DNA of 64,000 nt from an uncultured Bacteroidia bacterium (GCA_902796555.1 CADBPR010000030.1:20-64019), one strand, 5' to 3'; counted from the first letter of the stretch, positions 5,187 to 38,490 are shown. Translations and numbers: made by a program. Notes: generated by a model not told the origin, from the letters alone.

Positions 5187-6994
5187 TCAGCTTGGATTAC
5201 CAGGTCAATGACATCCTCTGTCCCGTTGGAAAATGCCAGACGGGCTGTCACCGTCTGGGTTCCCTTCTTCAAGATGAGGACATCATCGTTATACTTCGAA
5301 CCGTCGACATACCAGGTCACGGAACTCGGCTTTCTTCCTGCGGCTGTCGTATTGACTTTCAGGAAGAACCGTTCTCCGGCGACATAGCTTTCAGTCGGGA
5401 TGATGTAATTGTAGCCGAGGTCAGGATAGATCTCTTCCTCGGGGTCCTCGCCGCCGCTGACAGTGAAAGTCAGCACACCGTCGGCAATGGCGATATCAGA
5501 CAGTTGAATCGGGCTGCTGACGCCGTCCCAGTCCTTGGCCGTATATTTGGTAACACCGGACAGACCGGGAAAACTCATCCGATTTTCCAGATTGCCGCCA
5601 TAGATAACGGAATTGGCAACGGTATAGTTCAGGGTACCGGGGCTGGGTGCCGGGATGACATACCCGCAGGGATGGCTGCCGTTGGCATTGATGGAGTTGG
5701 ACTCTTCCCAGTTCTTCCACAAGGAAGATGCGGTATAGGTATACGTATTCCCGTAGTCGTCCGTGACTTTCACGGTGCGATTGGACATATCGATATGGTA
5801 AACCACCATACCGGGCTCAAGACCCCGGTCGCAACGGGTACCGTCCCGGAATTCATACAGGAAGAACTCCCCTTCCCGGGTGGTTTTCGTCCGCAGGCAA
5901 TGATTCTCATAGACGGGCGGCAGGGAGGTCACACCGTTGTAAACGATATCCTGAATGGCTTCGGATTCGGAAATCCAACCCAGCATCACCCTTTCCATGA
6001 CCGTAAAATGCACCGGCGAACGTCCAGCCTGCACATCGGCGCCGGAATCCATTACGGAAAAAGCCGACATCGCATGGGTGCTCCCGTTGGTGGAGTAATT
6101 GGTATCGTAAAAGTCCGGCAGTCCCAGGGAATGGCCGAACTCATGACAGGTCGTTCCGATGGAACACAGGGTCTTGCCGCTGGCGCCGGAAAATTCGGAA
6201 GTACAGAAGTAATTGCCCAGACGCACCCCGTCGTAGCGGGTCGACGTCTCGTATTCCAAGGTATACTGATGCGGCCAGATCGTGCCGGTCTGGCTGCTTT
6301 CGGCATAATTATAGCCCGGGTAGAAAAAGGCTATCAGGTCCACGAAACCGTCTCCGTCCTGGTCATAGCGGGCAAAATCCACATCGTCGTTGGCCGCTTT
6401 GCAAGCGGACACAAAACAGGCCTCCACGCCGGTCACGCCGTCTTCGAACTGCTTATAGCTGTAATTGACTTTGTAAGGGCCGTAGACATCGAACTCGGGG
6501 CGGAACTGTCCGTCGGAATTCTCCATATAGAAATCCCGAACCGAACCGTAGGCACCATTGACGGAATAACCTTCCTCATTCATCATCCGGGAAAGGTCCT
6601 GGGCCGAATATTTCCAGGTCAAATCCTTGTATTCCAGCATGATAACCAGTCCGCGCTTGACACCGATATTGTCCGAGCGGGTCGGGAAGTAACCGTTCGA
6701 AGCCATCGTAGCAGGGGCCTTCCGCGCCGCATGGGCGCGCTGCCGCATCTGCCGTACCCGGTCAGTGGGCGCGATTTCCGCGGCCGTTGCGGGACGCAGG
6801 TATCCCCGGACGTCCATCTTCAGCAGATTGCCGTCCAGGTCGGTCATCCAATGGTGGTATTCGTCACCGTGAAGACGGACCGTCACGACGCTGCCGTCAG
6901 GCTGGGTCAGTTGAATGGGCTGGCGTGTAGCCGGTCTGGCGCCGGCAATACGACAGGCAAGAAGGGTCAGCAGCAGGGTCAGTACTCTTTTCAT
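5183..6994 (-). CDS. M6 family metalloprotease, copy 1
   Basis: Same motifs (QPDGS..GDEYHH, GSVRDFY.ENS, IWPHQ, HEFGHSLGLPDFY); 4-nt overlap with copy 2. Confidence 0.9.
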   Translation of the reverse strand: MKRVLTLLLTLLACRIAGARPATRQPIQLTQPDGSVVTVRLHGDEYHHWMTDLDGNLLKMDVRGYLRPATAAEIAPTDRVRQMRQRAHAARKAPATMASNGYFPTRSDNIGVKRGLVIMLEYKDLTWKYSAQDLSRMMNEEGYSVNGAYGSVRDFYMENSDGQFRPEFDVYGPYKVNYSYKQFEDGVTGVEACFVSACKAANDDVDFARYDQDGDGFVDLIAFFYPGYNYAESSQTGTIWPHQYTLEYETSTRYDGVRLGNYFCTSEFSGASGKTLCSIGTTCHEFGHSLGLPDFYDTNYSTNGSTHAMSAFSVMDSGADVQAGRSPVHFTVMERVMLGWISESEAIQDIVYNGVTSLPPVYENHCLRTKTTREGEFFLYEFRDGTRCDRGLEPGMVVYHIDMSNRTVKVTDDYGNTYTYTASSLWKNWEESNSINANGSHPCGYVIPAPSPGTLNYTVANSVIYGGNLENRMSFPGLSGVTKYTAKDWDGVSSPIQLSDIAIADGVLTFTVSGGEDPEEEIYPDLGYNYIIPTESYVAGERFFLKVNTTAAGRKPSSVTWYVDGSKYNDDVLILKKGTQTVTARLAFSNGTEDVIDLVIQAE

Positions 6995-6999
6995 AGCCG

Positions 7000-8232
7000 T
7001 CAGATTTTAAGGATGAAACCTGTACCGTCAGTCGCCCGGAGCCAAGCAGTCTGCCCGTCGTCCTGCAGCAACACGGCCTCATACTCCCCTGCCGTCTTCC
7101 GGTCAATCACCAGGGTCAAGGTCACCGTCTCGCCTTCGCGAAGGTCGTTTCCGAAGCCGCGGACCTCGATAATGGAAGCCTGTTCCACATTCATCATGCG
7201 GAAGGACACGGAGGTATCGTCGTAATAGCGGCCCATCTGCATGGTCAGCGGGTCATAAAGGGTCTTACGACCGTCTGCATAGTAAACCCCGAACGCGGTT
7301 TCCCGCAGCAGCGGGTCGGTACCGGACTGGGTCAGCACCACGGTCTGGCTGAGTTTTCCGGAAGGCTGGCCGTCGGACAGGATGGAACCGTCCGCCGTGA
7401 AGACGATTTCGGCGCTGCGCTCCTCTTCTGCGGGATTCTCATCCACCGTAAAGACCAGTACATCCTGGTTGAGCGCCTTGGTCGGAGCCAGGCGGAGCCA
7501 ATCAGCGGAGCAAGATACTTCGTATTTCACATTGTACTGGGCCGTCAGGGAAAGGGACCCGCCGCGGCAGCCGATGGTCAGGACCTCCGGCGCGACCAGC
7601 AGCACATCGGTCTGGGACTGGACCAGGTTCAGGAGCAATTCGTCGGTGCCGGATTTGAAGACGACTTCCCCTGAGCGGGCATCGTAATCGTCCTGCCGGG
7701 CTTTGGCCGTAAAGGTCACCGTCGATTTGCCCGGCGCGCCGGTATCAGAAGACAGGGTGAACCAGTTGCCGGACACCGTCGTCATCTTCCAGGCCGAGAC
7801 CGCATTGATTTCCACCGTCTGTTCAAGCGTGCGGTCGAAAGATAGCGTGGTCGCCGATACGAAGGAAGCGATTCCCTTCTGGACAATCTCGGTTTCCAGC
7901 ACCTTGGAACCGCTGGTTATCACCAGGGTATCTTTGCGGACGGCTTGTTCGCTGTTCAGCCGGATATGCAGCTGAACGCTGCCGTTGAGGTTGTCCGTTC
8001 CAGGGTCTTCTTTCATGATAACGGCCCATTTTCCGCTCTTGAGACTGGCGGACCAGGCTTTGTCGCAGGTCAGCCCGATCGTGATATCCTGGGTGGCGGC
8101 CGTGAGTTCCACACTGGCGGGGCCGCTGCGTTCGAACTGCCGGGGGTCGTTCCCGAGAAGGCTACAGGACACGCACGCGAGCATCCCGGCAAAAGACAGT
8201 AATCCTGTCAGATAGTATTGTTTGATATACAT
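7000..8232 (-). CDS. BACON-domain lipoprotein (about three BACON repeats)
   Basis: Lipobox-like ACVSC; repeated W..../N....R.....F....V.Q.G BACON pattern. Confidence 0.8.
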   Translation of the reverse strand: MYIKQYYLTGLLSFAGMLACVSCSLLGNDPRQFERSGPASVELTAATQDITIGLTCDKAWSASLKSGKWAVIMKEDPGTDNLNGSVQLHIRLNSEQAVRKDTLVITSGSKVLETEIVQKGIASFVSATTLSFDRTLEQTVEINAVSAWKMTTVSGNWFTLSSDTGAPGKSTVTFTAKARQDDYDARSGEVVFKSGTDELLLNLVQSQTDVLLVAPEVLTIGCRGGSLSLTAQYNVKYEVSCSADWLRLAPTKALNQDVLVFTVDENPAEEERSAEIVFTADGSILSDGQPSGKLSQTVVLTQSGTDPLLRETAFGVYYADGRKTLYDPLTMQMGRYYDDTSVSFRMMNVEQASIIEVRGFGNDLREGETVTLTLVIDRKTAGEYEAVLLQDDGQTAWLRATDGTGFILKI

Positions 8233-8247
8233 GGTTAAAAAATAGAA

Positions 8248-9306
8248 TCAATCGTCATCCGGAAGGGTGATTTGCTTGTATTGTTTCTGGCGGCGCTGCC
8301 AGCGCTCACGCGCGTATTGCTGCATGTCCGTCACCGTATCGCTTTCGTCGATGATTTCCATGCCGAGCACCGTCTCGATGATATCTTCGAGGGTAATGAT
8401 TCCCTGGAAACAGCCGTATTCGTCGATAACCACGGAAATCTGGTCCTTGCTGCGGAGCAGTTCCTGCCAGATGTCGCTGACCGAGACTTCCTCATTGAAT
8501 GCGGCGATGTCGCGTTTGAGGTCGCCCAGGGTCATGCCGAACTGGTCGTCGGCCAAATGCTCCAGCACGGTGGACCGGAGCACGTATCCGGTAATGAATT
8601 CCGGCGAATCGGTATAGACGGGAATACGGGAATTATGGGAAAGGGAGCGGTCCTTGTAGAAGGATTTCAGCGTCATGGATTCCGGGGCGATGGCGCAGAC
8701 CACCCGCGGGGTCATGATGTCGTATGCCTTGATGCCGTCCTGTTTGATGATATTCTGAATCACCTTGTTCTCGCTCTGGTCGAACACGCCTTCTTCTTCG
8801 CCCATGTTGGCCATCGCGGAAACTTCCTCGCGGCTGATGGTCTGGTCGTCTTCATCGTCCGGGTTGACATGGCTGCTCAGCCACTCGCAAAGGATGACAA
8901 CCGGATAGAGAATGTAAATCAGGGCGTTCATGATACGGGAGAGCCACAGCAGATGCTTCCATTTCGAAGTGCCGATGCTCTTGGGGATGATTTCCGCGAA
9001 CACCAGAATCAGCAGCGTCGTCAGGGCGGAAACCAGGCCGAACCACTGGCTGCCGAACAACAGGGTCGCCTGCCGGCCGACACCGGCCGCTCCAATCGTA
9101 TTGGCGATGGTATTAAGGGACAGGATGGCAGCAATGGGACGGTCGATGTTCTGCTTCATTTTCATGAAAAGCGTGGCATTCCGGTCCCCTTCGTCCTCCT
9201 TCATCGTAAGATACGACAAAGGGGTCGACATCAGGGTCGATTCCAGCAGGGAGCACAAGAATGAGATCAGAACTGCGCCCAATAAAAATACAATCAGCAG
9301 AGCCAT
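8248..9306 (-). CDS. CNNM/DUF21 + CBS (CorC/HlyC-like) membrane protein
   Basis: SFLCSLLE, ILSLNTIANT, FAEIIPKSIG, tandem CBS domains with IMTPR, SRIPVY, DEYG..GIITLEDIIE. Confidence 0.9.
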   Translation of the reverse strand: MALLIVFLLGAVLISFLCSLLESTLMSTPLSYLTMKEDEGDRNATLFMKMKQNIDRPIAAILSLNTIANTIGAAGVGRQATLLFGSQWFGLVSALTTLLILVFAEIIPKSIGTSKWKHLLWLSRIMNALIYILYPVVILCEWLSSHVNPDDEDDQTISREEVSAMANMGEEEGVFDQSENKVIQNIIKQDGIKAYDIMTPRVVCAIAPESMTLKSFYKDRSLSHNSRIPVYTDSPEFITGYVLRSTVLEHLADDQFGMTLGDLKRDIAAFNEEVSVSDIWQELLRSKDQISVVIDEYGCFQGIITLEDIIETVLGMEIIDESDTVTDMQQYARERWQRRQKQYKQITLPDDD

Positions 9307-18274: not shown

Positions 18275-20266
18275 ATGAAGAAAATTTGGATTCTGTTCAG
18301 CGCACTGGCCCTGACTTTCGGGGCATACAGTTGCCAAAAGACCCCGGAGCAGCCCGCTCCGGATAAACAGGACGAAACCTCGAAAGACCCTTCCAAGGAC
18401 GTTCCCGTCTCGGATGACCCGAGCGAGGAACCGCCGGTGGACAAACTTGTCATCTCGGAAATCTACCCCATCGGTGAAGCCCTTTCCTGGGGCTGGAGCA
18501 TTCCGGGCGCCGAGGGGATGACCGGAACGAACGGCATCTTCACATGGGAAGGCGAGCTGAAGGCCCATGCCGAATTCAAATTCCTGCTCCAGCAGCAGGA
18601 CAATGTCTGGTGGCCGGGCCTTGTGCGGGATCTCAACGCCGACGACCCCTTCGCCATCATCGTCGGGACGGACGACTCGATGGACAACAAGTTCCGCGTC
18701 GACGTACACGGCATCTACCTCATTACGATTGACGCGAAGGACAGCGAAGCCCTCTCGATGACCCTCCAGCTCAAGGAAGAAATCAAGGATGACGACATTG
18801 TCATTACCGAGTTGTATCTGCTGGGCGACGCGACCGCGTGGGGATGGAGCCTGGACGCCATGGAAGCATTCAGCACCTCCGGCGACGGCATCTTCACCTG
18901 GGAAGGCAAACTGCTCGCCGGCAAGGAACTCCGCTTCCCGCTCCAGAAGCAGTCCAACGTCTGGTGGCCCTGCCTGGTCAAAGGTGCGGAGGACGGCACC
19001 CTGGCCATCGGATACGGCGACGCGGACAAGAACAACATCGATGTCCCGGCCGACGGCTACTATCGCATCACGGTCAATGCCACTGAGATGACCTATACGA
19101 TGGAATCCTTCGAACTGCCGGCCATCCAGGTCAAGCCGCTCTTCGGCTTCCAGTCCACGATGGAAGACCCGCACGGAATGACCCTGAACGCCAACTATAC
19201 CCTGGCCGTCGTGGGCGACTACCTGATTCTGTCCAATGCCCTGGACTACACGAAAATGCCGGTTTACAACCGTTTCACGGGCGAATTCCTGGGCGACGAA
19301 TTCGTGGACACCTCCAACTTTGAAGCCGAGAGCATCGACGCGAACATGCACTTTATGGCCATCGCCAACGATGATGCCGACCACCTGGTCGCCGCCACCT
19401 TCGTCGACACGCGCGAAGGCAGCACAGAGAACGGAACGGTGCGGATTTTCACCTGGAACAACGGCATCGGCAGCGCTCCCGCTTCAAAGGAATGGGCCGG
19501 CTTTTACAACTGGGGTACCGGCGCGGCATGGGCCTTCTCGAACCTGAAGGTAGCGGGTGACGTCACAAAGAATGCCGTCATCGCCACCAGCAGCACCGCC
19601 GGACGGGCTGTTTTCGCCACCATCCGGGACGGTGCCTCGGTCAGCAACCGCTTTATCAAGGAAATCCACGAAGGTTCCGCCTGGTGGAGTTCCAACGTAA
19701 TTCCCACCGACGGGGACGCCACCGGAGCCGACGATGTCAAGTTCATGAGCGTATCCGGCAACTTCCGCCAGTACATTTCCTATGCGGCGGGCAGCGTTTT
19801 CGACCTGGCCGACAGCTATTGGTATATGGGCGGCGGTCAGTACCAGCACAATGCCATCGGCGGCGACTGGATCCAGGCGGCCGGGCACAACCTCTTCGGT
19901 GTGCTGAACGGCTGGTATGCCGGCAGCACGGACGCCTTTGCCAACAACCATTTCTACTACCAGCTGGTGGTCAGCGACATCACCGCCGCTCCGGGCGCAT
20001 CTTCGCTGACGGACGGGCTGATTTTCGCTTCCCGTTCTTCTGCCAACGGAAATGGTCTCGAAGGCATGGGCTACGGACAGCAGGGAATGTTCTCCCCCTT
20101 CGCCTTTGAAGCGGGGCAGACCGTCCTCGGACCGAACGGTGTGGCGGCGAACAAGAGCCAGATCGGCGACGTCGTCTTCGCTTCGAACGGTGGAAACAAA
20201 GTTCAGGTCTATGCCCTGGTCATGAACCTGGGCCTGATCGGCTACGAAATCACGTTCAACGAATAA
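18275..20266 (+). CDS. PUL surface lipoprotein: two SusE/SusF-like repeats + the same C-terminal domain
   Basis: Lipobox AYSC, acidic/Pro linker, two repeats Y..G.A..WGWS...GIFTWEG.L...NVWWP..., then the shared C-terminal domain. Confidence 0.75.
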   Translation: MKKIWILFSALALTFGAYSCQKTPEQPAPDKQDETSKDPSKDVPVSDDPSEEPPVDKLVISEIYPIGEALSWGWSIPGAEGMTGTNGIFTWEGELKAHAEFKFLLQQQDNVWWPGLVRDLNADDPFAIIVGTDDSMDNKFRVDVHGIYLITIDAKDSEALSMTLQLKEEIKDDDIVITELYLLGDATAWGWSLDAMEAFSTSGDGIFTWEGKLLAGKELRFPLQKQSNVWWPCLVKGAEDGTLAIGYGDADKNNIDVPADGYYRITVNATEMTYTMESFELPAIQVKPLFGFQSTMEDPHGMTLNANYTLAVVGDYLILSNALDYTKMPVYNRFTGEFLGDEFVDTSNFEAESIDANMHFMAIANDDADHLVAATFVDTREGSTENGTVRIFTWNNGIGSAPASKEWAGFYNWGTGAAWAFSNLKVAGDVTKNAVIATSSTAGRAVFATIRDGASVSNRFIKEIHEGSAWWSSNVIPTDGDATGADDVKFMSVSGNFRQYISYAAGSVFDLADSYWYMGGGQYQHNAIGGDWIQAAGHNLFGVLNGWYAGSTDAFANNHFYYQLVVSDITAAPGASSLTDGLIFASRSSANGNGLEGMGYGQQGMFSPFAFEAGQTVLGPNGVAANKSQIGDVVFASNGGNKVQVYALVMNLGLIGYEITFNE

Positions 20267-24036: not shown

Positions 24037-25514
24037 GATACGCCTGTTCCCTGCTCCTGGTCCTGGCCTTGTCGGCCTGCCGCCAGAGCGTCGCCGACTT
24101 TGTCCCCGGCGTGATTCCACGCCCGCAGGAAGCCGTTTTTTATGCCGACACCTGCTTGCATCCGGACCGGATTCGCCGTGAAAAGGGCTTTCTGGGCCCC
24201 GAAGACTATACCCTTCGGATTCGCAGGAACGGAATCCTGATTGCAGCTTCCGGAGAGGCCGGCTATGCCTACGCCCTGCAGACCCTCGCCCAACTGCGGG
24301 AGGCCGGTCCGCTGCACGTCGGCACCATTACGGACCGTCCCCGCTACGGCTGGCGCGGCCTGATGCTGGATGAAGCCCGCCATTTTTCCGGCAAGGAAAG
24401 GGTCAAACTGCTGCTGGATGAAATGGCCCGGCTCAAGCTCAACCGTTTCCACTGGCACCTGACCGACGCACAAGGATGGCGCATCGAAATCAAGGCTTAT
24501 CCCAATCTGACCGGGACCGGAGCCGTCGGCAACCACAGCGACCCGGACGCCCCCGCCCTTTATTATACCCAGGAAGATATCCGCGAAATCGTGGCCTATG
24601 CAGCCGAGCGGCATATCGCGGTGATTCCCGAAATCGACATGCCGGGCCATGCCTCGGCCGCCTGCCGTTCCTATCCCCAATATGCCGGCGGCGATGCCTA
24701 CGGTTTCACCTTCAACCCGGGCAAAGAAGAAACCTACACCTTCCTGACGGACATTCTGCGGGAAGTGGCCGGCCTCTTCCCGGCGCCCTGGCTGCATATC
24801 GGCGGCGACGAAGTCAGCTACGGCAGCGAGGCCTGGACGGCGAATCCCGATATCCGCGCCCTGATGCAGCGCGAGGACCTCGCCGACATCAAAGCGGTGG
24901 AACGCTATTTCATGCACCGGATGGCGGATTCCGTCAAGGTACTCGGCAAGACCCTGATTGCCTGGGACGACGCCTATGACGTCGGCATCGGTCCGCAGGG
25001 CGAAATCATCGACTGGTGGCGGCATGACCGGCCCGACAAACTGCGCCGGCTCGCCGCGGCGGACATCAGCACCATCCTCTGCCCCCGCCGTCCCCTGTAT
25101 TTCGATTTCATCCAGGACAGCACCCATGTCGCCGGACGCGAATGGGACGGCTTCAACTCCCTGGACGATGTATACGGCTTCCCGGAGAACCGCTTTTCCC
25201 AGTGGGAACTGACCGACAACGACCTCGTCAGCGTACTGGGCATCCAAGCCAACCTGTGGACCGAGACCACCCAGAATACCGACCGGGTGGATTTCATGAT
25301 TTTCCCGCGCATCTGCGCCCTGGCCGAAGCGGCCTGGACCCTGCCCGAGCACAAGGATTTCCCGTCCTTCCGGCAGCGCCTGGACCGTGAATACGCCCGC
25401 TACGATGCCCTGGGCATCTATTATTTCGACGAACGCGACCCGGCCCGCCATCCTGAACCGGCCGGTCCGGTCGTGCTGCCGCAAAAACCCATCAGCCTGT
25501 ATCTCCATGAGTAA
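24024..25514 (+). CDS. GH20 beta-N-acetylhexosaminidase, lipoprotein
   Basis: Lipobox LSAC; RGLMLDEARHF, FHWHLTD.QGWR, PEIDMPGH, HIGGDE catalytic motif, LWTE. Confidence 0.95.
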   Translation: MHRLRYACSLLLVLALSACRQSVADFVPGVIPRPQEAVFYADTCLHPDRIRREKGFLGPEDYTLRIRRNGILIAASGEAGYAYALQTLAQLREAGPLHVGTITDRPRYGWRGLMLDEARHFSGKERVKLLLDEMARLKLNRFHWHLTDAQGWRIEIKAYPNLTGTGAVGNHSDPDAPALYYTQEDIREIVAYAAERHIAVIPEIDMPGHASAACRSYPQYAGGDAYGFTFNPGKEETYTFLTDILREVAGLFPAPWLHIGGDEVSYGSEAWTANPDIRALMQREDLADIKAVERYFMHRMADSVKVLGKTLIAWDDAYDVGIGPQGEIIDWWRHDRPDKLRRLAAADISTILCPRRPLYFDFIQDSTHVAGREWDGFNSLDDVYGFPENRFSQWELTDNDLVSVLGIQANLWTETTQNTDRVDFMIFPRICALAEAAWTLPEHKDFPSFRQRLDREYARYDALGIYYFDERDPARHPEPAGPVVLPQKPISLYLHE

Positions 25515-27642
25515 ACGGCTGACACTGGTCCTTCTGCTGCTGGCCGCCTTCACGGCGGTCCGCGCGCAGGTCGTCCTCGAAAACGCCACCATGCGGCTGA
25601 CGCTCGGGGAAGACGGACAGGTGTACAGTCTGCTGTGCAAAGATACCGGCGAAGAATGTCTGGAAGGACCCGTCCCGCTGTGTACCGTCACCCAGGAGCG
25701 GCCCTATGACAATGAGAACTTCCTGATGATGCCGGCCAAACCGGTCGTATTCCCGTCCAATCACTTGGAATACCGTGACGGTCAGCTGTTTGTGACATTT
25801 GAAGGGACCTATGACATTGCCGTCATCGATGTCCGGCTGGAAGATGCTTATATCGGCCTGCGCCTGGCCCGCCGCGACTACCGCATCGAGAACATGGGCG
25901 TCAAGCGCAAGACCGAGCTGGATGCCTTCGCCCTGGCACAGCTGGCGGTCCGCCGGCGGGCGCATTTCGGAGCCTGGCTGAATGTCACCTGGGACGACCG
26001 GACGGCTGTCTGCCTGATGGGCGTCGACCCGAAAACCCGCATCGACTGTCTGGGCAATACCTTTTATGCCGGGCTTGAAAGCGCGGTCGGCATGGACAGC
26101 CGGGGGGCGGTCCTGATTGCCGCCGCCACCGAACGTTTCCTGGACGTGGTCGACCGGGTGGAACGGGATTACGGCCTGCCGCTCGGCGTGGAAAGCCGTC
26201 GCCGCAAGGGGTACAGCGATTCCTATTATGAACTGCGGGACGTCACCCCGGAGAACCTGGACCGGCATATCGCCTATGCCCGGCAGGGCGGATTCCGGGC
26301 GATGGTCCTGTATTATACCGATTTTGCCGCGACCTGCGGCCATTACACCTGGAAAGCAGGCTTCGACCGGGAAACATTGGTGACGCTCTGCCGCCGCATC
26401 CGGGAGGCCGGCTTCGACCTGGGTTTCCACATCCACTATTCCAAAGTCTCCGTTACCGACCCGTATATCAATGACGGGGTACCGGACACGCGCCTGGCCT
26501 ATGTCAAGGACCTGGTCCTGGCGGAGCCGGTCGGACCGGAGGACAGCGAAATCCTGCTGGAGACCGCCCCGGAAGGGCTCCGGACCGAAGACGGCCGCCG
26601 GCTGGTCCACCTCGGGGACGAACTGATTGCCTATGACGCGTTCACTTCGCAGCGGCCCTACCGGCTGACCGGCTGCCGGCGCGGCATGTACAACAGCAAG
26701 GCAGCCCCGCATCCGAAAGGCAGTATTGCCCGGCAGCCCGATGTCGATGACTGGCCCCTGTTCATCCGAATCAGCCAGGACAACGGTCTGCAGGACGAAA
26801 TCGCGGAACGGCTGGCCGCCCTGTACCGGGACTGCGGTTTCAACTTCGTCTATTTCGACGGAGCGGAAGACGTACCGCCCCCCTATTGGTACAATGTCTC
26901 CCGTTCCCAAAAAAGAGTTTTCGACCGGCTCTCGCCTGCCCCCATCTATGCGGAAGGCGCCCTGAAATCCCATTTCGGCTGGCATATCCTGAGCCGGGGC
27001 AATGCTTTCGACCTGTTCCGGCCGGAACAGATACGCTCCGCCATGAAACGGTATACCCTGCGCTGCGCCCGGGAGATTGCCGATGATTTCACCTCGGTGG
27101 ATTTCGGATGGGTGGACAGCGTCGCCCCCGACAGTACGACGGCGGGCATGCAGCCGGACACCTACGACTACATCTGCAGCAAGGCCCTGGCCTGGAACGC
27201 CCCGATTTCCCTGATGGGCAAGCTGGATGTCCTGGATAAGCATCCCCGGACGGCGGACAACCTGCAGGTCATCCGGGCGTGGGAAGAAGCCAAACGGGAA
27301 GGCCGCTTCACCGAGGCTGAGAAGGCTCTGCTGCGGGATCCGGACCGGGAATGGACCCTGATCGGGGGCCGGCTCTATGAATGCCTTCACCTGCTGGACG
27401 ACGGTCCCGTCCGCGGAGTCGTCCTGTACCGGAACGGGCGCTACTGCCTGTTGTACTGGCATTTGTACGGAGAAGGGACCCTGGCGCTGCCACTGGAAGG
27501 GAATGTGCGGCTGACGGACCTGGACGGCCGGCGAATCCGCTGCAGGAAAGGCCTGTACCCCGCCGGGGAAAGACGGCTGCTGGAAACGGATGCCGGTGAA
27601 TCCGCATTGTTACACGCATGGAAAAACAAGACTGTCTTATGA
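25507..27642 (+). CDS. Secreted protein of unknown function, probable TIM-barrel glycoside hydrolase-like
   Basis: Signal peptide; GFHIH and FNFVYFDGAED segments resemble clan GH-D barrel strands; PUL context. Confidence 0.55.
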   Translation: MSKRLTLVLLLLAAFTAVRAQVVLENATMRLTLGEDGQVYSLLCKDTGEECLEGPVPLCTVTQERPYDNENFLMMPAKPVVFPSNHLEYRDGQLFVTFEGTYDIAVIDVRLEDAYIGLRLARRDYRIENMGVKRKTELDAFALAQLAVRRRAHFGAWLNVTWDDRTAVCLMGVDPKTRIDCLGNTFYAGLESAVGMDSRGAVLIAAATERFLDVVDRVERDYGLPLGVESRRRKGYSDSYYELRDVTPENLDRHIAYARQGGFRAMVLYYTDFAATCGHYTWKAGFDRETLVTLCRRIREAGFDLGFHIHYSKVSVTDPYINDGVPDTRLAYVKDLVLAEPVGPEDSEILLETAPEGLRTEDGRRLVHLGDELIAYDAFTSQRPYRLTGCRRGMYNSKAAPHPKGSIARQPDVDDWPLFIRISQDNGLQDEIAERLAALYRDCGFNFVYFDGAEDVPPPYWYNVSRSQKRVFDRLSPAPIYAEGALKSHFGWHILSRGNAFDLFRPEQIRSAMKRYTLRCAREIADDFTSVDFGWVDSVAPDSTTAGMQPDTYDYICSKALAWNAPISLMGKLDVLDKHPRTADNLQVIRAWEEAKREGRFTEAEKALLRDPDREWTLIGGRLYECLHLLDDGPVRGVVLYRNGRYCLLYWHLYGEGTLALPLEGNVRLTDLDGRRIRCRKGLYPAGERRLLETDAGESALLHAWKNKTVL

Positions 27643-32222: not shown

Positions 32223-33221
32223 ATGAAAAAATTCGCTCTCACAGCCTTGTCGCTGATTCTCTGCCTGAGCGCCGCCGCCCAAAACGTCCGGCGCATCGGC
32301 ATCATCGGCCTGGATACGTCCCATTCCACGGCCTTCACCGAACTCCTGAACGGAGACGGGGATGACCCTTTTGTCCGGTCTTTTGAAGTCGTGGCCGCCT
32401 ATCCGTACGGTTCCCGCACGATTCCTTCCAGCTACAACCGGATCGCCGGATACACGGAAGAGGTCAAAAAGCACGGCGTCGTCATCTGCGACTCCATCGA
32501 CCAGCTGCTGGAAATGGTTGATTTCGTGATGATTGAGACCAATGACGGACGGCTCCATCTGGAACAGGCCGAAGCGGTATTCCGCAGCGGAAAGGTCTGC
32601 TACATCGACAAGCCCGTCGGCGCCACCCTGGGGGAAGCGCTGGCCATCTATCAGCGGGCGGACCATTACGGAATTCCGATTTTTTCCTCCTCGGCCCTGC
32701 GCTTTTCCCCGGACAATGTCAAACTGCGTGAAGGCGCTTTCGGTCCCGTTCTCGGTGCCGACTGCTATTCACCGCACAAGACGGAACCGACCCATCCCGA
32801 CTTCGGATTCTACGGGATTCACGGCGTTGAAACGCTCTATACCCTGATGGGGACCGGCTGCGTGACCGTATCCCGCCTCGGAACCGCGATGGGTGACGTC
32901 GTCACCGGAACCTGGGCAGACGGCCGGATCGGGACCTTCCGGGCCATCGTAGAAGGGCCGGCCATCTATGGCGGTACGGCTTATACGGCCCAAGGGGCTG
33001 TTCCCGCCGGAGGCTATGCCGGATACAAGGTCCTGCTCGACCAGATTCTCACCTTCTTCGAAACCGGCGTGCCGCCCGTCAGCCGGGAGGAAACCCTGGA
33101 AATCTATGCCTTCATGAAGGCCTCCAACATGAGCAAAGCCCAAGGACGGCCGGTGACGATTGCCGAGGCTATGAAGGCCGGGAAGAAAGAAGCGGCCAAA
33201 CTGCTGAAAGCCTACCGATGA
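32223..33221 (+). CDS. Gfo/Idh/MocA oxidoreductase with Sec signal peptide
   Basis: MKKF..AAA signal; IGIIGLDTSH, YIDKP, SSSALRF, YGIHGVE. Confidence 0.85.
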   Translation: MKKFALTALSLILCLSAAAQNVRRIGIIGLDTSHSTAFTELLNGDGDDPFVRSFEVVAAYPYGSRTIPSSYNRIAGYTEEVKKHGVVICDSIDQLLEMVDFVMIETNDGRLHLEQAEAVFRSGKVCYIDKPVGATLGEALAIYQRADHYGIPIFSSSALRFSPDNVKLREGAFGPVLGADCYSPHKTEPTHPDFGFYGIHGVETLYTLMGTGCVTVSRLGTAMGDVVTGTWADGRIGTFRAIVEGPAIYGGTAYTAQGAVPAGGYAGYKVLLDQILTFFETGVPPVSREETLEIYAFMKASNMSKAQGRPVTIAEAMKAGKKEAAKLLKAYR

Positions 33222-34363
33222 ACGCGCGACTGACCCTTCTGCTGATGGCCATGACGGCTTTTGCCTGCACCCCCGCGCCCATTCGGCTCAGCGTACTGGA
33301 GCCGGGGCATTTCCATGCTTCGCTGGTCCAGAAATACGCCCTGGAAGGCGTGGATTCCACCGTCCGTGTCTATGCGGAAGACGGACCGGAGTTGCAGCAG
33401 TATCTGACGGCCATCGATGCCTTCAACCACCGGCAGGAGCAGCCGACCCATTGGCGGGAAGAGGTCCATATCGGTGATGCTGCGGCCCTGCTTCCCCCGG
33501 CCAAGGGACGGGAAGCCGTCATCCTGGCCGGAAACAACCGCCACAAGACCCGCCTGCTGCACCGGGCGGTATCGCAGGGATATAACGTACTGGCAGACAA
33601 ACCTTTGGCAATAACGCCCGAAGACTTGGACCTGCTGGAAGACGCCTACCGGACCGCTACGGAAAAAGGGCTGGTCATTCAGGAACTGATGACCGAGCGG
33701 ACCGTCGCCGGCAACCGGGCCCTGCAGGACTGGTATACAGCGCATCCCATCCCCTGCGGCAGCCCGGAGGAACCGGCCGTGCAAATGCGCAGCGTCCATC
33801 ATTTTTTCAAGCAGGTGGACGGAAATCCCCTGACCCGGCCGGTCTGGTATTATGACATCCGTTGCCAGGGCGAGGGCATCGCCGATGTCACCACCCATTA
33901 TATCGACATGATTTTCACCCAATGTTTTCCCGGGGAGACCCTGCAGGCGTCGGACATCCTTGTGGTGGAGGCCCGCCACTGGCCGACCCGCATTACGCGG
34001 GAGCAGTTCCGGCAGTCCACGGGAGCGGAAGATTTCCCGGCCGACCTGGTCCCCTACCTCCGGGACGGCGTTCTGGAAGTCATGGCCAACGGCAGCATGC
34101 TGCTCTGCATCAAGGGCGTTTATGCCCGGATTGAAGTAATCTGGGACTATGAAGGGACAGATTCCTTCACGGCGGATTATGCCGGTTTTTCCGGCAGCTT
34201 GCCGGCTGATACGCTCAGCCACGAAGACCATTTCCGGCTGGTGATGGAAGATTTTTTGGAATATGTAGAAGGGGCCCGGACCCAGCCTGCCCGCGAGCGG
34301 GTCAATACCCTGACCAAATACCGTATCATCGGCGAGGCCGTCCGACAAGCAGGTGGAGCGTGA
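33218..34363 (+). CDS. Gfo/Idh/MocA-related oxidoreductase lipoprotein (Oxidoreduct_C-type)
   Basis: Lipobox AFAC; PGHFHASLVQK, LAGNN..K, VLADKPLAI, MTER, SVHHFFK, QGEGIADVTTH. Confidence 0.75.
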   Translation: MNARLTLLLMAMTAFACTPAPIRLSVLEPGHFHASLVQKYALEGVDSTVRVYAEDGPELQQYLTAIDAFNHRQEQPTHWREEVHIGDAAALLPPAKGREAVILAGNNRHKTRLLHRAVSQGYNVLADKPLAITPEDLDLLEDAYRTATEKGLVIQELMTERTVAGNRALQDWYTAHPIPCGSPEEPAVQMRSVHHFFKQVDGNPLTRPVWYYDIRCQGEGIADVTTHYIDMIFTQCFPGETLQASDILVVEARHWPTRITREQFRQSTGAEDFPADLVPYLRDGVLEVMANGSMLLCIKGVYARIEVIWDYEGTDSFTADYAGFSGSLPADTLSHEDHFRLVMEDFLEYVEGARTQPARERVNTLTKYRIIGEAVRQAGGA

Positions 34364-35141
34364 ATCGACATATCTGACTGAGCAACAGGTCTTTCATGGC
34401 TGGATACCGCGCGTCATGGGGACCCGTTTCGACCTGCTGGTCTGTGCGGTGGGCGCACGAGCGGCGCAGGTGTTGTGGAGCAATATTTGCAACACCCTGG
34501 AACAGATGGACCGGATGTTGGACCGCTTCAACCCGGTCAGCGAAGTGGCGCGGCTCAATACGGGACGCATCCGCAGCCTGAGTGCTGAACTGCAGGAAGT
34601 GCTGGATATCTGCGCCGGCTATTGGCTGCGCACCGGCGGGCTGTTCGACATCACCCGCAAGGACTTCACCCGGCTGCACTGGCAGGTCGGGACGTTGGAT
34701 ACCGGCGGTGTGGACATGGACTTCGGCGGAATCGCCAAAGGGCTGGCGCTCAGGCAGATACAAGACATGCTGGAACGATGGGGCATCACCTCGGCCTTCG
34801 TGGATTTCGGAGGCAGTTCCATTCTGGCGGTGGGCCGGCACCCCTACGGTCCCTGCTGGAAGGTAAGCCTGCAGAACCCCTATACCGGGGAAAACCTGGC
34901 CGAAGTGCCGCTCCTGGACTGTTCCCTGTCCACATCGGGCAACCGGCCGGAATACAGTGGCCATATCATCCGGCCGGCGGATGGACAGCCATGTGAAGAA
35001 CGGCGGCTGGTGACCGTTACGGCGCCGGACCCGCTGGATGCGGAAGTCCTCAGCACCGCCCTTATGCTGGCGACGCCCCGGCAGCGGACCGCATTGAAAG
35101 AACAGTTTCCGCGCGCGGAAACACAGATATATGACGTATGA
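34353..35141 (+). CDS. apbE: ApbE-family FAD:protein FMN transferase (short, no signal peptide)
   Basis: MGT, SEVARLN, T.G.FDIT, DFGGIAKG, DFGGSS, STSG, HII.P..G, AEVLSTA. Confidence 0.85.
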   Translation: MERESTYLTEQQVFHGWIPRVMGTRFDLLVCAVGARAAQVLWSNICNTLEQMDRMLDRFNPVSEVARLNTGRIRSLSAELQEVLDICAGYWLRTGGLFDITRKDFTRLHWQVGTLDTGGVDMDFGGIAKGLALRQIQDMLERWGITSAFVDFGGSSILAVGRHPYGPCWKVSLQNPYTGENLAEVPLLDCSLSTSGNRPEYSGHIIRPADGQPCEERRLVTVTAPDPLDAEVLSTALMLATPRQRTALKEQFPRAETQIYDV

Positions 35142-36448
35142 GTAAGGAAGTTGACCTCGGACTGCGCCGGTTCCTGAAGAACCTGGGGCTGATGACCGGC
35201 GGTGCCGCCATTCTGACGACGGCCCCCTGGCTCCAGTCCTGTTCCCGCACGGCTGAGGAAAAAGAAAAGGAAACGGCCCGGCTGGCCCTGATTGGCTGCG
35301 GTTCGCGCGGACAGTACCACTTGGTGATGCTGCGCGGGATTTCCTGCGCCCGGGTCGTCGCGCTATGCGACGACTGGCAGCCCAACTTGGATGCCGCCCA
35401 TGCCATGGTGCCGACGGCCCGTACCTATACCGATTACCGGAAACTCCTGGAGGACCCGGACATCGACGGCGTCATCATCGCGACGCCCCTGGGGTTGCAT
35501 GCCCGTATGACCCTGGACGCCATGGCTGCCGGCAAGCATGTTTTCTGCGAGAAGGCCATGGCCTTGACCCTGGAAGAATGCAAGCAGGTCTATGAGGCGT
35601 ATCGCCGGGGGGACCGGGTCCTGTTTTACTGTATGCAGCGCATGTATGACGAGAAATACATCCAGGGTATCCGGCTCATTCGGGAAGGGCTCATCGGCGA
35701 TGTGGTCGGCATGCGCTGCCACTGGTTCCGGAACGCTGACTGGCGCCGGGAAGTGCCCTCCCCCGAACTGGAGCGACGGATCAACTGGCGTCTGTACAAG
35801 GAGTTCTCGGCCGGACTGATGACCGAGCTGGCCTGCCACCAGTTGGAAGTATGCAATTGGGCGGCGGACCGCATTCCTACCGAAATCATCGGCCTGGGAG
35901 ATATCGTCTATTGGAAGGACGGGCGGGAAGTCTACGACAGCGTCAATGTGACCTATCGCTATGCAGACGGGCGGAAAATCTGCTATGAATCGCTGATTTC
36001 CAACAAGTTCAACGGGATGGAAGACCAGATTCTCGGCAAGGACGGCACGATGGACCTCACCCGGGGCGTCTTCTATCTGGAGGAGGACCATCTGAATTCA
36101 GGCATGAAACAGTTGCTCGAACAAATCAAAACGAAGACGTTCGCCGCGATTCCGGCGGCCGGGCCTTCCTGGCGGCCGGAGTTGCGCTCCGCCTATACCC
36201 CGCATCCCATTCTGGAAGGCGCCGTCAGCGTCAATGCCGGCCAAAGCATGGTCGCGGCGGACAACGACGGCTCCGATATCATCCTGGAGGCTTTCTGCCG
36301 GTCCTGTCTCAACGGACAACGGGCGGAAAACGTCGTGGAGGAAGCCTACAGCGCCACCGTGCTCTGCCTGCTGGGCAACTTGGCCATGGAGGAGCAGCGG
36401 CTCATCACCTTCCCGGAGGAATACAAAATCCCATACATGAAATTCTGA
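35138..36448 (+). CDS. Tat-exported (lipo)protein Gfo/Idh/MocA oxidoreductase
   Basis: LRRFLK twin-arginine motif plus LQSC lipobox; IGCGSRG Rossmann motif, IATP..H, HVFCEKAMA, NWRLY..FSAGLMTELACHQ. Confidence 0.9.
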   Translation: MSKEVDLGLRRFLKNLGLMTGGAAILTTAPWLQSCSRTAEEKEKETARLALIGCGSRGQYHLVMLRGISCARVVALCDDWQPNLDAAHAMVPTARTYTDYRKLLEDPDIDGVIIATPLGLHARMTLDAMAAGKHVFCEKAMALTLEECKQVYEAYRRGDRVLFYCMQRMYDEKYIQGIRLIREGLIGDVVGMRCHWFRNADWRREVPSPELERRINWRLYKEFSAGLMTELACHQLEVCNWAADRIPTEIIGLGDIVYWKDGREVYDSVNVTYRYADGRKICYESLISNKFNGMEDQILGKDGTMDLTRGVFYLEEDHLNSGMKQLLEQIKTKTFAAIPAAGPSWRPELRSAYTPHPILEGAVSVNAGQSMVAADNDGSDIILEAFCRSCLNGQRAENVVEEAYSATVLCLLGNLAMEEQRLITFPEEYKIPYMKF

Positions 36449-36452
36449 TGCC

Positions 36453-36701
36453 ATGAAAGACCTTGTCATCCCCGCCAAAACCCTCCGACGGGAGTTGTGG
36501 ATACTCCTGGGCTGCCTGGGGGCCGCCATCCTGGTCAATGTCGGCGCCATCATCGCCTATGACAGGCCCTGGAAAGAATTGTTCACCCAAATCGGCTATA
36601 CCCTGACCGTAACCATATTGTTATATCTGGTCCTGCTCCTGGGAAGAGGACTTGTAGCAGGACTCATCCATATCATCCGAAAAATAAATCGACATGACTA
36701 G
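36453..36701 (+). CDS. Small two-TM membrane protein
   Basis: 82 aa, two hydrophobic helices around AYDRPWKELFTQ; tightly packed between two oxidoreductase genes. Confidence 0.75.
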   Translation: MKDLVIPAKTLRRELWILLGCLGAAILVNVGAIIAYDRPWKELFTQIGYTLTVTILLYLVLLLGRGLVAGLIHIIRKINRHD

Positions 36702-38031
36702 CAGACGTAACTTCCTGAAGACCGCCCTCGCCGGCGGAGCCGCACTGACCCTGGACGGCATGATGCCCCGGAGCGCCGCGGCCGCAATGCAACCCTCCCC
36801 GGCCCCCAGCGACCGCATCCGCGTCGGCGTCATCGGGGTCAATTCTCGCGGATTCGCCCTGGCGACCGGTTTTGCCAAAATGCCCGGATGCCGGGTAACG
36901 GCCTTGTGTGACTGCGACCTGCAGGCCCTGGAGCGGGCCCGCGTCCAGGTACGGAGCCTGACAGGGAAGAATCCCGACACTTTCCAGGATATACGGGAAT
37001 TCCTGGAATACAAAGAGATGGACGCAGTGGTCATCGCCATGCCCGATCATTGGCACGCCAAGGCCGCCATCATGGCGATGGAAGCCGGCAAACATGTCTA
37101 CCTGGAAAAACCGACCAGTTACTGTCCCGCTGAAAACGAGGCGTTGATGGCAGCCGCCCGCCGCACGGGCAAGGTCATTACCGCCGGCAACCAGCGCCGT
37201 TCCTGGCCGAATATTATCGCCGCCATCCAGGAGATCCGGGAAGGCAGCATCGGACGGGTCCGCTATGCCAAGACCTGGTACAGCGCCAACCGGCCGTCCA
37301 TCGGCCGCGGCAAGCCCGCGCCGGTGCCGGCCCACCTGGACTGGGACCTGTGGCAGGGACCGGCTCCGCGTACGGAATTCCATGACAACTATATCCATTA
37401 CAACTGGCATTGGTTCTACCGCTGGGGAACCGGAGAAGCCCTCAACAACGGGACCCATTTCGTCGATATCCTGCGCTGGGGACTGGACGTGGAATACCCG
37501 ACCCTCGTAACCTCCGTGGGCGGACGTTTCCGCTACGATGACGACTGGGAATTCCCTGACACGCAGATGATTACCTTCCAGTTCGGAGACAAGGCCTCCG
37601 GCTGGTGGGAGGGCCGCAGCTGTAACAGTACTCCCAGTGACGGGGCCGGACTGGGCGTCGCTTTCTACGGAGAGAACGGTGCGCTGTTCCTCAACGGCGG
37701 GGACGAGTACAAGATCGTCGACATGAAGGGCGGCGTCATCAAAGAGGTCAAGAGCGAATACCCTTTCGAGCCGGCCAATGTCATCAACCCGTGTGAGAAG
37801 CTGGACACCTTCCATTTCCGGAACTGGTTCGATGCCATCCGAACGGGGGCCCGGCTGAATTCCGACATCCGGAATGCCTGTATCAGCACCCAGCTGGTCC
37901 AGCTCGGCAATATTGCCCAGCGGGTCGGCCGGTCGCTGCGGATCAATCCCGAGAACGGACACATTCTGGACGACGCCGAGGCGATGCGTTATTACAGTCG
38001 CCACTACGAGCCCGGCTGGGAGGTTGAATAA
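36694..38031 (+). CDS. Tat-exported Gfo/Idh/MocA oxidoreductase
   Basis: MTSRRNFLK Tat motif; GVIGVNSRG, PDHWH, HVYLEKP, GNQRRS, LDWDLWQGPAP, HYNWHW, NNGTHFVD. Confidence 0.92.
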   Translation: MTSRRNFLKTALAGGAALTLDGMMPRSAAAAMQPSPAPSDRIRVGVIGVNSRGFALATGFAKMPGCRVTALCDCDLQALERARVQVRSLTGKNPDTFQDIREFLEYKEMDAVVIAMPDHWHAKAAIMAMEAGKHVYLEKPTSYCPAENEALMAAARRTGKVITAGNQRRSWPNIIAAIQEIREGSIGRVRYAKTWYSANRPSIGRGKPAPVPAHLDWDLWQGPAPRTEFHDNYIHYNWHWFYRWGTGEALNNGTHFVDILRWGLDVEYPTLVTSVGGRFRYDDDWEFPDTQMITFQFGDKASGWWEGRSCNSTPSDGAGLGVAFYGENGALFLNGGDEYKIVDMKGGVIKEVKSEYPFEPANVINPCEKLDTFHFRNWFDAIRTGARLNSDIRNACISTQLVQLGNIAQRVGRSLRINPENGHILDDAEAMRYYSRHYEPGWEVE

Positions 38032-38322
38032 CGGCCGTGCCTGTCCCTCTCATGATGTCGAGGGTGGCACAGGCGGCCGTAGACAAGCACCTGCATCCCT
38101 TTCGCTGCCGTCGCGCAAAGCGCGACCCCTCCCACCATATATACGGGGGAATAGGATTCCCCCGAACCCCCTGCGGCCGTTATTCCCTCCACGACTTGCC
38201 TCGTTGACGCGGAACCAGCGGCAAGTCACGGGTACGGCCGGCCGGCTGATGCCGGCATGTGGGCCCCTCCCTCTCATGATGCCGAGGGTGGCACAGGCGC
38301 TGAAAGGGATGCAGGTGCTTGT
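38031..38322. repeat. Structured intergenic element (REP/MITE-like): 21-bp perfect inverted repeats, 32-bp direct repeats and internal hairpins
   Basis: ACAAGCACCTGCATCCCTTTC 38083-38103 is the reverse complement of 38302-38322; TCCCTCTCATGATGYCGAGGGTGGCACAGGCG at 38044-38075 and 38268-38299; hairpins at 38110-38126, 38144-38164 and 38193-38227. Confidence 0.8.
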
Positions 38323-38490
38323 TAAATTGAGACGCGCCGTGCCAAAGCCCTCCGAAAAGGTAAAAGATTGTATATTTTTCGTTAAGAATCGTATTTTTCT
38401 GCTGGTAAAGAATTGTAATGCAGAAAGATACGATTCTTTCTTTTTGTTCCGGAAAAAGCCCTTACCTTGGCCGGCGTAAAAACATACGCC

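Follow-up and report, generated by a model that had tools for sequence, protein, structure and literature searches.

Gut Bacteroidota can break down glycans without hydrolysis by means of periplasmic glycoside dehydrogenases of the Gfo/Idh/MocA type. The closest described system is BT2156–BT2160 of Bacteroides thetaiotaomicron, in which BT2158 is a periplasmic glycoside 3-dehydrogenase and BT2157 a DUF1080 hydrolase. In the parts of Liu et al. (2021; PMC8121099) drawn upon here, the electron outlet of BT2158 is stated to be unknown, an unidentified acceptor being needed because B. thetaiotaomicron lacks cytochrome-c-dependent systems. The same parts describe ThuAB and LacABC, which oxidize disaccharides to 3-keto sugars in the periplasm with an external outlet dependent on cytochrome c, and cite the GFOR of Zymomonas mobilis, a Gfo/Idh/MocA protein that is exported by the twin-arginine translocation (Tat) system and carries tightly bound NADP into the periplasm. 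Proteins that receive flavin from ApbE transferases canonically carry the motif D-x-x-[ST]-G-A-[ST], to go by the portion of PMC12052999 consulted. The locus described here is a six-gene cassette at positions 32223–38031 of a 64,000-nt stretch (the window) from a contig of an uncultured Bacteroidia bacterium, represented by a 2.13-Mb, 83 %-complete Bacteroidales metagenome-assembled genome (MAG). The cassette is read, with moderate confidence, as an extracytoplasmic sugar-oxidizing module whose special part is a flavin-tagged Gfo/Idh/MocA protein.

The six genes encode, in order, GfoA332, OxC381, ApbE, Gfo436, TM82 and Gfo445. All are co-oriented and form a tight operon, with junctions of −4, −11, −4, +4 and −8 bases, and the ApbE gene overlaps both of its neighbours. 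Promoter-like and terminator-like sites within the cassette do not exceed shuffled expectation. Every one of the six ORFs that the original prediction had called in this interval is present on the + strand. Export signals were judged by eye and with the signal hidden Markov models (HMMs) of Pfam and NCBIfam; as had been proposed, all four oxidoreductase-like proteins look exported rather than cytoplasmic, from the N-termini by eye and, for Gfo445, also by HMM.

The ApbE gene (34353–35141, + strand) encodes a 262-aa protein of the FAD:protein flavin mononucleotide (FMN) transferase type that is predicted to be cytoplasmic. It scores 133.7 bits against PF02424 (gathering score 25.6), and its motifs GGIAKG125, STSGN193, H204-IIRP and E231-VLST align with ligand or catalytic motifs of the solved ApbE/Ftp chains 5mgy, 4xgw and 2o18. 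The protein is without a signal peptide: the stop-to-stop frame spans 275 codons, with 13 codons before the GTG start, and the ApbE domain starts at about residue 22. In a large protein collection 477 sequences are homologous at E ≤ 1e-10. Their 120 best are 237–294 aa long, the domain starts at residues 22–24 in 90 of the 120, and the N-terminus is hydrophobic in only 1. The genome encodes one further ApbE, on contig C59, which is canonical and has a lipoprotein signal. A quick maximum-likelihood tree built from 106 ApbEs places 28 of the 37 Gfo-linked ones in a single clade with a Shimodaira–Hasegawa-like support (SH-aLRT) of 99. Two unlinked rows fall in this clade as well, one of them 143 bases from a contig end, and the other nine linked ApbEs, which have N-terminal extensions or signals, group elsewhere. 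These features suggest that the cassette ApbE is a dedicated, cytoplasmic-type paralogue tied to Gfo436.

Linkage between the two genes is widespread. Twelve of 151 genomes of the same family (the window's included) have a cassette-type ApbE at E ≤ 1e-20, and in all 12 it adjoins a Gfo436 orthologue (43–69 % identity) and a TM82 homologue; a second Tat-Gfo protein is also present in 11 of these 12 modules. An ApbE-alignment scan of 185,579 species genomes used a generic pattern and returned mostly generic ApbEs. An adjacent Gfo436-type gene was found in 13 of the 80 loci retained, distributed over Bacteroidales, Lentimicrobiaceae, Balneolaceae, Acidobacteriota, Gemmatimonadota and Hydrogenedentes. 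In the reverse direction, a Gfo436 search at E ≤ 1e-40 gave matches in 46 of the 401 Bacteroidota genomes covered, and 20 of the 51 places outside its own genome, found with Gfo436 alone, served as the linkage test. Thirteen of the 20 proteins are 419–448 aa long, or lie within longer ORFs in high-GC genomes, and have a non-canonical flavinylation motif. ApbE lies within 4 kb of 12 of these 13; at the thirteenth locus (L113) only 363 bases of contig remain beyond the gene on the flank expected to carry ApbE. The other seven are 392–396 aa long (Gfo396 type) with a canonical motif, and neither ApbE nor TM82 was found within ~5.8 kb at any of the seven loci. At all seven, Gfo396 lies directly downstream of a Gfo445 orthologue (37–46 % identity) and a double-DUF1080 gene, and the five canonical-motif genomes tested (5/5) have only long, high-scoring ApbEs, far off or on another contig. 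Over all 45 loci assembled, ApbE lies within 4 kb of 37 of 38 non-canonical proteins versus 0 of 7 canonical ones. The tie between ApbE and Gfo436 holds across Bacteroidota, Balneolota and Acidobacteriota. ApbE plus Gfo436 form the conserved core, which is usually accompanied by TM82 and by a Tat enzyme of BT2158-like type, for example Gfo445.

An Nqr operon starts ~7 kb downstream of the cassette (nqrA at 45392), and the cassette ApbE might serve the Nqr complex or other standard targets, having been placed in the cassette by chance. This is highly improbable, given that a canonical lipoprotein ApbE exists on another contig, that the cassette gene overlaps its neighbours on both sides, and that ApbE travels with Gfo436 orthologues in nearly all of the non-canonical loci, in several phyla and whatever else is nearby. 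A protein without a signal peptide also would not be able to reach the extracytoplasmic sites of NqrB and NqrC.

Gfo436 (35138–36448, + strand), with a Tat-type signal, a lipobox and an NAD-type loop, is the predicted carrier of covalent FMN. It scores 82 bits against PF01408 (cut-off 24) and has a GCGSRG glycine loop and a CEKA motif; residues G53, G55, G58, E138, K139 and H234 are invariant in 50 sequences. Since it keeps all NAD-type residues, Gfo436 would carry NAD and FMN together. Its N-terminus reads LRRFLK...WLQSC, of twin-arginine type with a lipobox, and the lipobox PW-x-x-[SA]-C is retained in 12 of 12 family-level orthologues. The family is large, with 3,580 representative clusters matching at E ≤ 1e-30, although some of those counted are more distant Gfo proteins. 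Among the 150 best family representatives, four (P0444, P0448, P0463 and P0475) are called as single polypeptides of 652–717 aa, with an ApbE domain at the N-terminus and a Gfo436-type protein at the C-terminus. As evidence of fusion they were set aside and counted as adjacency only: P0444 keeps a Tat-like motif between its halves, and the four may be either true fusions or neighbouring genes read through.

The predicted flavinylation site is Ser344, whose codon lies at 36167–36169 (+ strand) within the motif A-A-G-P-S-W. Relative to solved Gfo/Idh/MocA enzymes, its loop is an added segment that separates the C-terminal sheet from the last helices. The Gfo396 proteins carry D-G-V-[SA]-G-A-T in the same loop at 7 of 7 loci, and an L-INS-i alignment places the final Thr of D-G-V-S-G-A-T on Ser344. 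Among 25 ApbE-linked homologues, position 344 is Ser or Thr in all 25, and the glycine two residues before it (G342) is kept in 24. Across homologues the loop motifs form a graded series: GGATW, GGASW, GGPSW, AGTSW, AGPSW. Among 120 listed Gfo396 homologues, D-x-x-[STA]-G-[AS]-[ST] occurs at 78–92 % of the length in 116, the motif is exactly DGVSGAT in 97, and 95 have an RR-x-F-L-like N-terminus. The canonical motif is also present in cultured Flavobacteriia records (Flagellimonas, Maribacter, Fulvivirga and Galbibacter). A broader census of 116 full-length, profile-aligned rows gave a canonical loop in 17, x-G-x-[ST] in 34, another Ser/Thr in 59 (many of them A-[ST]-K) and an empty loop in 6; taken without genome context, it neither proves nor disproves the site beyond the sampled loci. 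A different candidate, STGAT, seen in two relatives, was rejected because it sits in a variable loop absent from most orthologues.

The simplest account of these patterns is that ApbE substrates include the Gfo436/Gfo396 family as a class of their own. A housekeeping exported ApbE could serve the members with a canonical motif; where the motif has drifted, a dedicated ApbE would travel with the gene. A signal-less ApbE and a target with a twin-arginine-type signal fit modification before Tat export. Signal-less ApbEs have a precedent in Klebsiella pneumoniae, whose cytoplasmic ApbE modifies a soluble fumarate reductase according to the portion of PMC12052999 consulted.

The same data bear on a different possibility, that the transferase role of this ApbE paralogue has been lost or altered, the protein acting as a flavin or nucleotide chaperone, a pyrophosphatase or a Tat assembly factor, with the Ser/Thr of Gfo436 being structural or catalytic. 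The motif of the window's clade does depart from D-x-x-[ST]-G-A-[ST], the cassette ApbE has ~35 residues fewer between FDIT and DFGG than solved ApbEs, and it scores 53.1 bits against the NCBIfam equivalog PRK10461, far below the cut-off of 498. FAD pyrophosphatase activity has moreover been reported for Treponema Ftp (PMC4767422, in the part consulted). Yet all 17 members of the clade that were aligned keep the Mg/FAD and catalytic His motifs unchanged, the intermediate GGAT-W motifs bridge AGPS-W and the canonical SGAT, and the canonical-motif paralogues do without a dedicated ApbE, as expected if the gene modifies that very site. A changed role is accordingly considered improbable.

The likely partner in sugar oxidation is Gfo445 (36694–38031, + strand), a Tat-exported NAD-type Gfo/Idh/MocA enzyme and distant relative of the BT2158-type glycoside 3-dehydrogenases. 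It scores 60 bits against PF01408 (cut-off 24), also matches PF19051, and has a GVNSRG loop and an LEKP motif; with Gfo436 it shares the GxGxxG-type loop, an EK[AP] motif and a conserved His. The Tat signal originally assigned to it (SRRNFLK) is borne out by two HMMs, Pfam TAT_signal PF10518 (24.0 against a cut-off of 22.7) and TIGR01409 (20.2 against 16.7). Against NF058561 (BT_2158_fam) Gfo445 scores 153 bits, Gfo436 78 bits and the partner Tat enzymes of related loci 141–288 bits, all below the cut-off of 750, and no cassette protein attains any NCBIfam equivalog cut-off. Gfo445 matches PDB chain 8tdf at E 2.9e-25. That the cassette enzymes work as heteromeric complexes, as was suggested, is plausible; Gfo445 orthologues adjoin GfoA332 orthologues in two genomes (L147, L148) and Gfo436/396-type proteins in many.

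Both Gfo436 and Gfo445 also match GFOR chains (1ofg, 1h6a) and GH109 chains (2ixa, 6t2b) in the Rossmann domain only. Such matches would suit redox-neutral NAD-dependent glycosidases or epimerases (GH4/GH109-like, or with a GFOR-like ping-pong mechanism), in which each enzyme keeps its NAD, the hydride is returned within the enzyme's own cycle or to a second sugar so that no electron outlet is required, and ApbE and the Ser/Thr serve otherwise. BT2158 itself has been proposed to reduce an unidentified second sugar (Liu et al. 2021, PMC8121099, in the parts consulted). In genome G655, Gfo445 and GfoA orthologues stand beside NagA- and NagB-like genes, with no ApbE or Gfo436 within the 10 kb examined; not every such locus thus has a flavin partner. 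On the other side, the GH109 and GFOR matches are weaker than the dehydrogenase ones and confined to the N-terminal domain, and a redox-neutral cycle leaves the strict ApbE linkage and the canonical motif of the paralogues unexplained. DUF1080 genes adjoin the module in 15 of 45 loci, made up of 8 of the 38 with a non-canonical motif and all 7 with a canonical one; 3-keto-disaccharide hydrolases encoded beside the module imply a released keto product and so a net oxidation. Redox-neutral turnover is therefore considered unlikely.

The usual partners of 3-keto-glycoside pathways were originally said to be missing at this locus, and indeed neither DUF1080 (PF06439) nor the TIM-barrel family AP_endonuc_2 (PF01261) is matched within the window. 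A genome-wide search located DUF1080 at C30:81310–82479, ~17 kb past the window end, and on contig C40, and a single weak AP_endonuc_2 match on C14. The first of these lies in a stand-alone lipoprotein of two DUF1080 domains (C30:81225–82508; 7206–8489 of locus L129). It was rejected as the missing partner, being 31–41 % identical to the linked DUF1080 proteins with the domain order swapped. On C40, PF01408 matches at 907–1260 and 4845–5207 flank a 909-aa protein with a C-terminal DUF1080 domain; this region (C40:500–6100, locus L130) looks like a second periplasmic sugar-oxidation locus of the genome.

In the sequence of events proposed for the cassette, the dedicated ApbE would first move FMN from FAD onto Ser344 of folded Gfo436 in the cytoplasm. 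Loaded with NAD and FMN, Gfo436 would then be exported by Tat, lipidated and placed at the inner membrane, perhaps on TM82. Outside the cytoplasm Gfo445, and possibly Gfo436 too, would oxidize a hydroxyl of imported glycosides with tightly bound NAD, at C3 by analogy with BT2158. The tethered FMN would accept reducing equivalents from the bound NADH and hand them to the membrane quinone pool (menaquinone), which would allow enzyme turnover where free NAD is absent. GfoA332 and OxC381 may handle keto intermediates or serve as further partners, replacing a DUF1080 enzyme. A more specific version is offered tentatively, at slightly less than even confidence: that Gfo436/Gfo396 proteins are a previously unrecognized class of ApbE substrates, namely extracytoplasmic flavo-NAD sugar dehydrogenases with a Gfo/Idh/MocA fold, whose non-canonical branch has a co-evolved signal-less ApbE and is flavinylated before Tat export, the FMN being the electron outlet to quinones of BT2158-type enzymes in anaerobic Bacteroidota.

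A flavin relay re-oxidizing the cofactor had been one of the options originally put forward. It gains from a dedicated ApbE that is tied to Gfo436 across phyla and from a hydroxyl residue at the motif position of the paralogues; beyond co-occurrence and motif conservation, what is proposed here, flavin function included, we infer from sequence. The extracytoplasmic non-hydrolytic redox cassette envisaged at the outset is reasonable, and its chemistry, be it C3 oxidation, elimination or epimerization, is conjectural. That other proteins of the polysaccharide utilization locus provide the missing steps, as was also suggested, is a guess.

Several observations weigh against the proposed flavin-tagged module. 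Gfo436 reads I-P-A-A-G-P-S344-W in its family-specific loop, with Pro at −1 and no Asp at −6, and the canonical [ST]G[AS][ST] is conserved in none of the cassette proteins. A second, automatic MAFFT alignment moves the loop register by two columns; the first register is preferred because of the GGAT/SGAT identity, and the uncertainty is real. Of the Tat signal plus lipobox assigned to Gfo436, the LRRFLK motif is recognizable by eye and the lipobox is conserved, but no Tat HMM attains its cut-off (TIGR02811 18.7 vs 48.45) and two orthologues read RQ instead of RR. The linkage counts have limits of their own: 25 of the 45 loci were gathered through ApbE (loci L018–L108 were found in this way) and add nothing to the linkage test, only the 20 Gfo436-found loci are unbiased, and the genomes are related rather than independent. 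TM82 is missing from 16 of the 38 non-canonical loci (present in 22) and has no conserved His or Cys suggestive of a redox cofactor. The 83 %-complete genome yielded no DUF1080 orthologue of the linked type, and the scheme would require hydride to pass from the NADH of one subunit to the FMN of another. A weak point in favour comes from contig coverage, which was checked in one DNA sample (X5) and three bovine-gut RNA libraries (X15, X16 and X17). The RNA-library contigs take in the cassette, cover 30, 27 and 13 of 30 bins and span the GfoA/OxC, ApbE/Gfo436 and TM82/Gfo445 junctions; they are a weak sign of expression, as the contigs may derive from DNA.

TM82 (36453–36701, + strand) is a small two-helix membrane protein and the predicted membrane partner or anchor. 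Its termini are basic and its loop, W-x-E-[LI]-F-[ST]-Q-I-G, is conserved; it is present in 12 of 12 family-level modules and has no match in Pfam or NCBIfam. A docking or anchoring part is suggested with low confidence.

The four oxidoreductase-like proteins are not equivalent. Four Gfo/Idh/MocA-type enzymes had been predicted; Gfo436 and Gfo445 are clear members by Pfam, whereas GfoA332 and OxC381 carry conserved loops that are not of the GxGxxG type. GfoA332 (32223–33221, + strand) is an exported Gfo-fold-like protein with a Sec-type signal, its N-terminus being hydrophobic and ending in AAAQ. Its PF01408 score of 25.8 bits is barely above the cut-off of 24, and its best PDB match reaches only E 0.0016. 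GIIGLDTSH replaces the GxGxxG dinucleotide loop and is accompanied by a DKP motif; among 120 listed homologues, G[IV][IV]GLD[TS]SH is found in 120 and DKP in 118. The loop is a hint that the ligand may not be a dinucleotide bound in the classical way. The protein is unusually conserved, sharing 69–70 % identity with a B. thetaiotaomicron protein of 334 aa that comes from another family of the order. Among 151 genomes of the order, 4 (counting that of the window) have an orthologue, and the other three all have an OxC gene too, elsewhere in the genome. In one of these genomes (G670), GfoA has a Tat signal and lies beside a Gfo445-like gene and DUF6807.

OxC381 (33218–34363, + strand) is a lipoprotein that scores 201 bits against PF16490 (Oxidoreduct_C) and 20.1 bits against PF01408, below the cut-off of 24. 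It has the loop LEPGHFHA (EPGHFH), and its lipobox reads AFAC, with VSC in orthologues. The PF16490 profile matches at positions 18–154 and 232–277, leaving profile positions 155–231 unmatched, and PDB chain 4oo3 (‘hypothetical protein’) matches at E 3.7e-75 with its residues 312–386 unmatched. OxC381 lacks ~75 residues of the C-terminal domain that typical PF16490 members of 457–480 aa have, in an intact frame. No pairwise similarity between GfoA332 and OxC381 is detectable. The two accompany the ApbE–Gfo436 core only in G079, a genome of the same genus, and in a rumen MAG (L029); an OxC fragment follows the ApbE–Gfo436 pair in one Acidobacteriota contig. Full-length OxC genes stand beside 457–471-aa Tat-Gfo proteins in four of eight Bacteroidales loci (L139, L140, L143 and L146), and L139, the sole OxC locus annotated, also has ThuA, DUF6807, a URO-D-like gene and a TRAP transporter. 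OxC with Tat-Gfo is apparently a recurrent and so far uncharacterized locus type. GfoA332 and OxC381 appear to belong to a wider accessory set of periplasmic sugar oxidation; that they stand in for DUF1080 here is a guess.

The cassette is the 3′ end of a long + strand polysaccharide utilization locus (PUL) at 9391–38031. Upstream genes encode an ROK kinase, an AraC-type regulator with a periplasmic-binding domain, SusC, SusD, a DUF5018 protein, an SIS protein, a GH2 enzyme with an exo-glucosaminidase Ig domain, a GH20 enzyme, a DUF6259 protein, a NAGPA phosphodiester glycosidase, a DUF4855 protein and two unassigned proteins. The latter, of 663 aa (18275–20266) and 751 aa (25387–27642), have no Pfam match at E ≤ 0.01. 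The substrates would likely be amino-sugar glycosides released by the PUL. In the G079 genome the whole cassette comes after MFS, NagA-like and NagB-like genes, and in G655 the order is MFS, NagA-like, NagB-like, Gfo445 (52 %), GfoA (48 %) and an AraC regulator 40 % identical to that of the window. The amino-sugar theme of the original prediction thus recurs, in three separate contexts. A link of the cassette to this PUL in other genomes was not found, the 16-kb G079 locus having no match to the PUL genes.

Words sampled from the stretch occur at 0.59–0.71 in 14 sequencing runs, the readable labels of which are sheep, goat and bovine gut or rumen metagenomes. Directly 3′ of the Gfo445 stop codon lies a 302-base element (38034–38335). 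It is flanked by 37-nt direct repeats (38039–38075 and 38263–38299, 92 % identical) and holds 21-nt perfect inverted repeats (38083–38103 and 38302–38322). The element is skipped, with a joint 38033>38336, in a DNA contig (X5) and an RNA-library contig (X15) from other samples. Its lack in contigs of other samples points to a strain insertion/deletion polymorphism, similar in form to a miniature inverted-repeat transposable element.

Should the proposed module be correct, 3-keto-glycoside catabolism would become a respiration-linked periplasmic oxidation, and how bound NAD is re-oxidized would have a concrete answer in covalent FMN carried by a partner or paralogous Gfo protein. ApbE substrates would come to include a further protein fold and a further motif variant, and flavinylation would in this case precede Tat export. 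Surveys filtered on ApbE signal peptides would overlook the whole class. One such survey (PMC8238504), as described in the part consulted, retained only clusters with a signal peptide or lipidation site on ApbE or a known flavinylated domain, a filter that would have missed a signal-less ApbE–Gfo436 module. A literature search found no paper linking ApbE with Gfo/Idh/MocA proteins, although the supplements of PMC8238504 may list such clusters; Gfo or related dehydrogenases are not mentioned in the main texts of PMC8238504, PMC11334425 and PMC12052999.

Compared with the described ApbE systems (NqrC/NqrB, RnfG/D, NosR, PceC and PplA), the cassette has a transferase of the same family with the same motifs, and the Gfo396 paralogues share the canonical target motif. 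It differs in that the predicted target has a Gfo/Idh/MocA fold rather than being FMN_bind, NqrB/RnfD, DUF2271 or DUF3570, in that modification of the target would precede its export by Tat, and in the non-canonical motif of the window's clade. GFOR is similar in that its PDB chains match Gfo436 and Gfo445; unlike the cassette, it regenerates its cofactor by reducing a second sugar and is without a flavin site, ApbE or membrane partner. Resemblance to ThuAB and LacABC lies in the proposed periplasmic sugar oxidation with an external electron outlet and in the OxC-family genes, which sit with ThuA and Tat-Gfo in other Bacteroidales, whereas the cassette has no cytochrome gene and the window region scanned has no ThuA gene. 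GH109 enzymes are exported Bacteroidota enzymes that act on HexNAc glycosides. Their Rossmann domain is similar to that of the cassette enzymes, but the likeness does not extend beyond the N-terminal domain and falls short of that to dehydrogenases, and membership of GH109 is not supported by these chain matches.

BT2156–BT2160 is the nearest relative. Both systems have Tat-exported Gfo/Idh/MocA enzymes in Bacteroidota, Gfo445 and its partner enzymes match BT_2158_fam and PDB 8tdf/8tdh, and related loci have DUF1080 genes beside the module. At 153–288 bits against a cut-off of 750, Gfo445 and the partner enzymes are not equivalogs, and no flavin partner is described for BT2158 in the portions of the literature covered. 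The cassette, for its part, is without a DUF1080 or TIM-barrel gene and adds ApbE, a Gfo protein with a predicted flavin site, TM82, GfoA332 and OxC381. The cassette probably gives one of its exported enzymes a built-in electron outlet beyond the cytoplasm.

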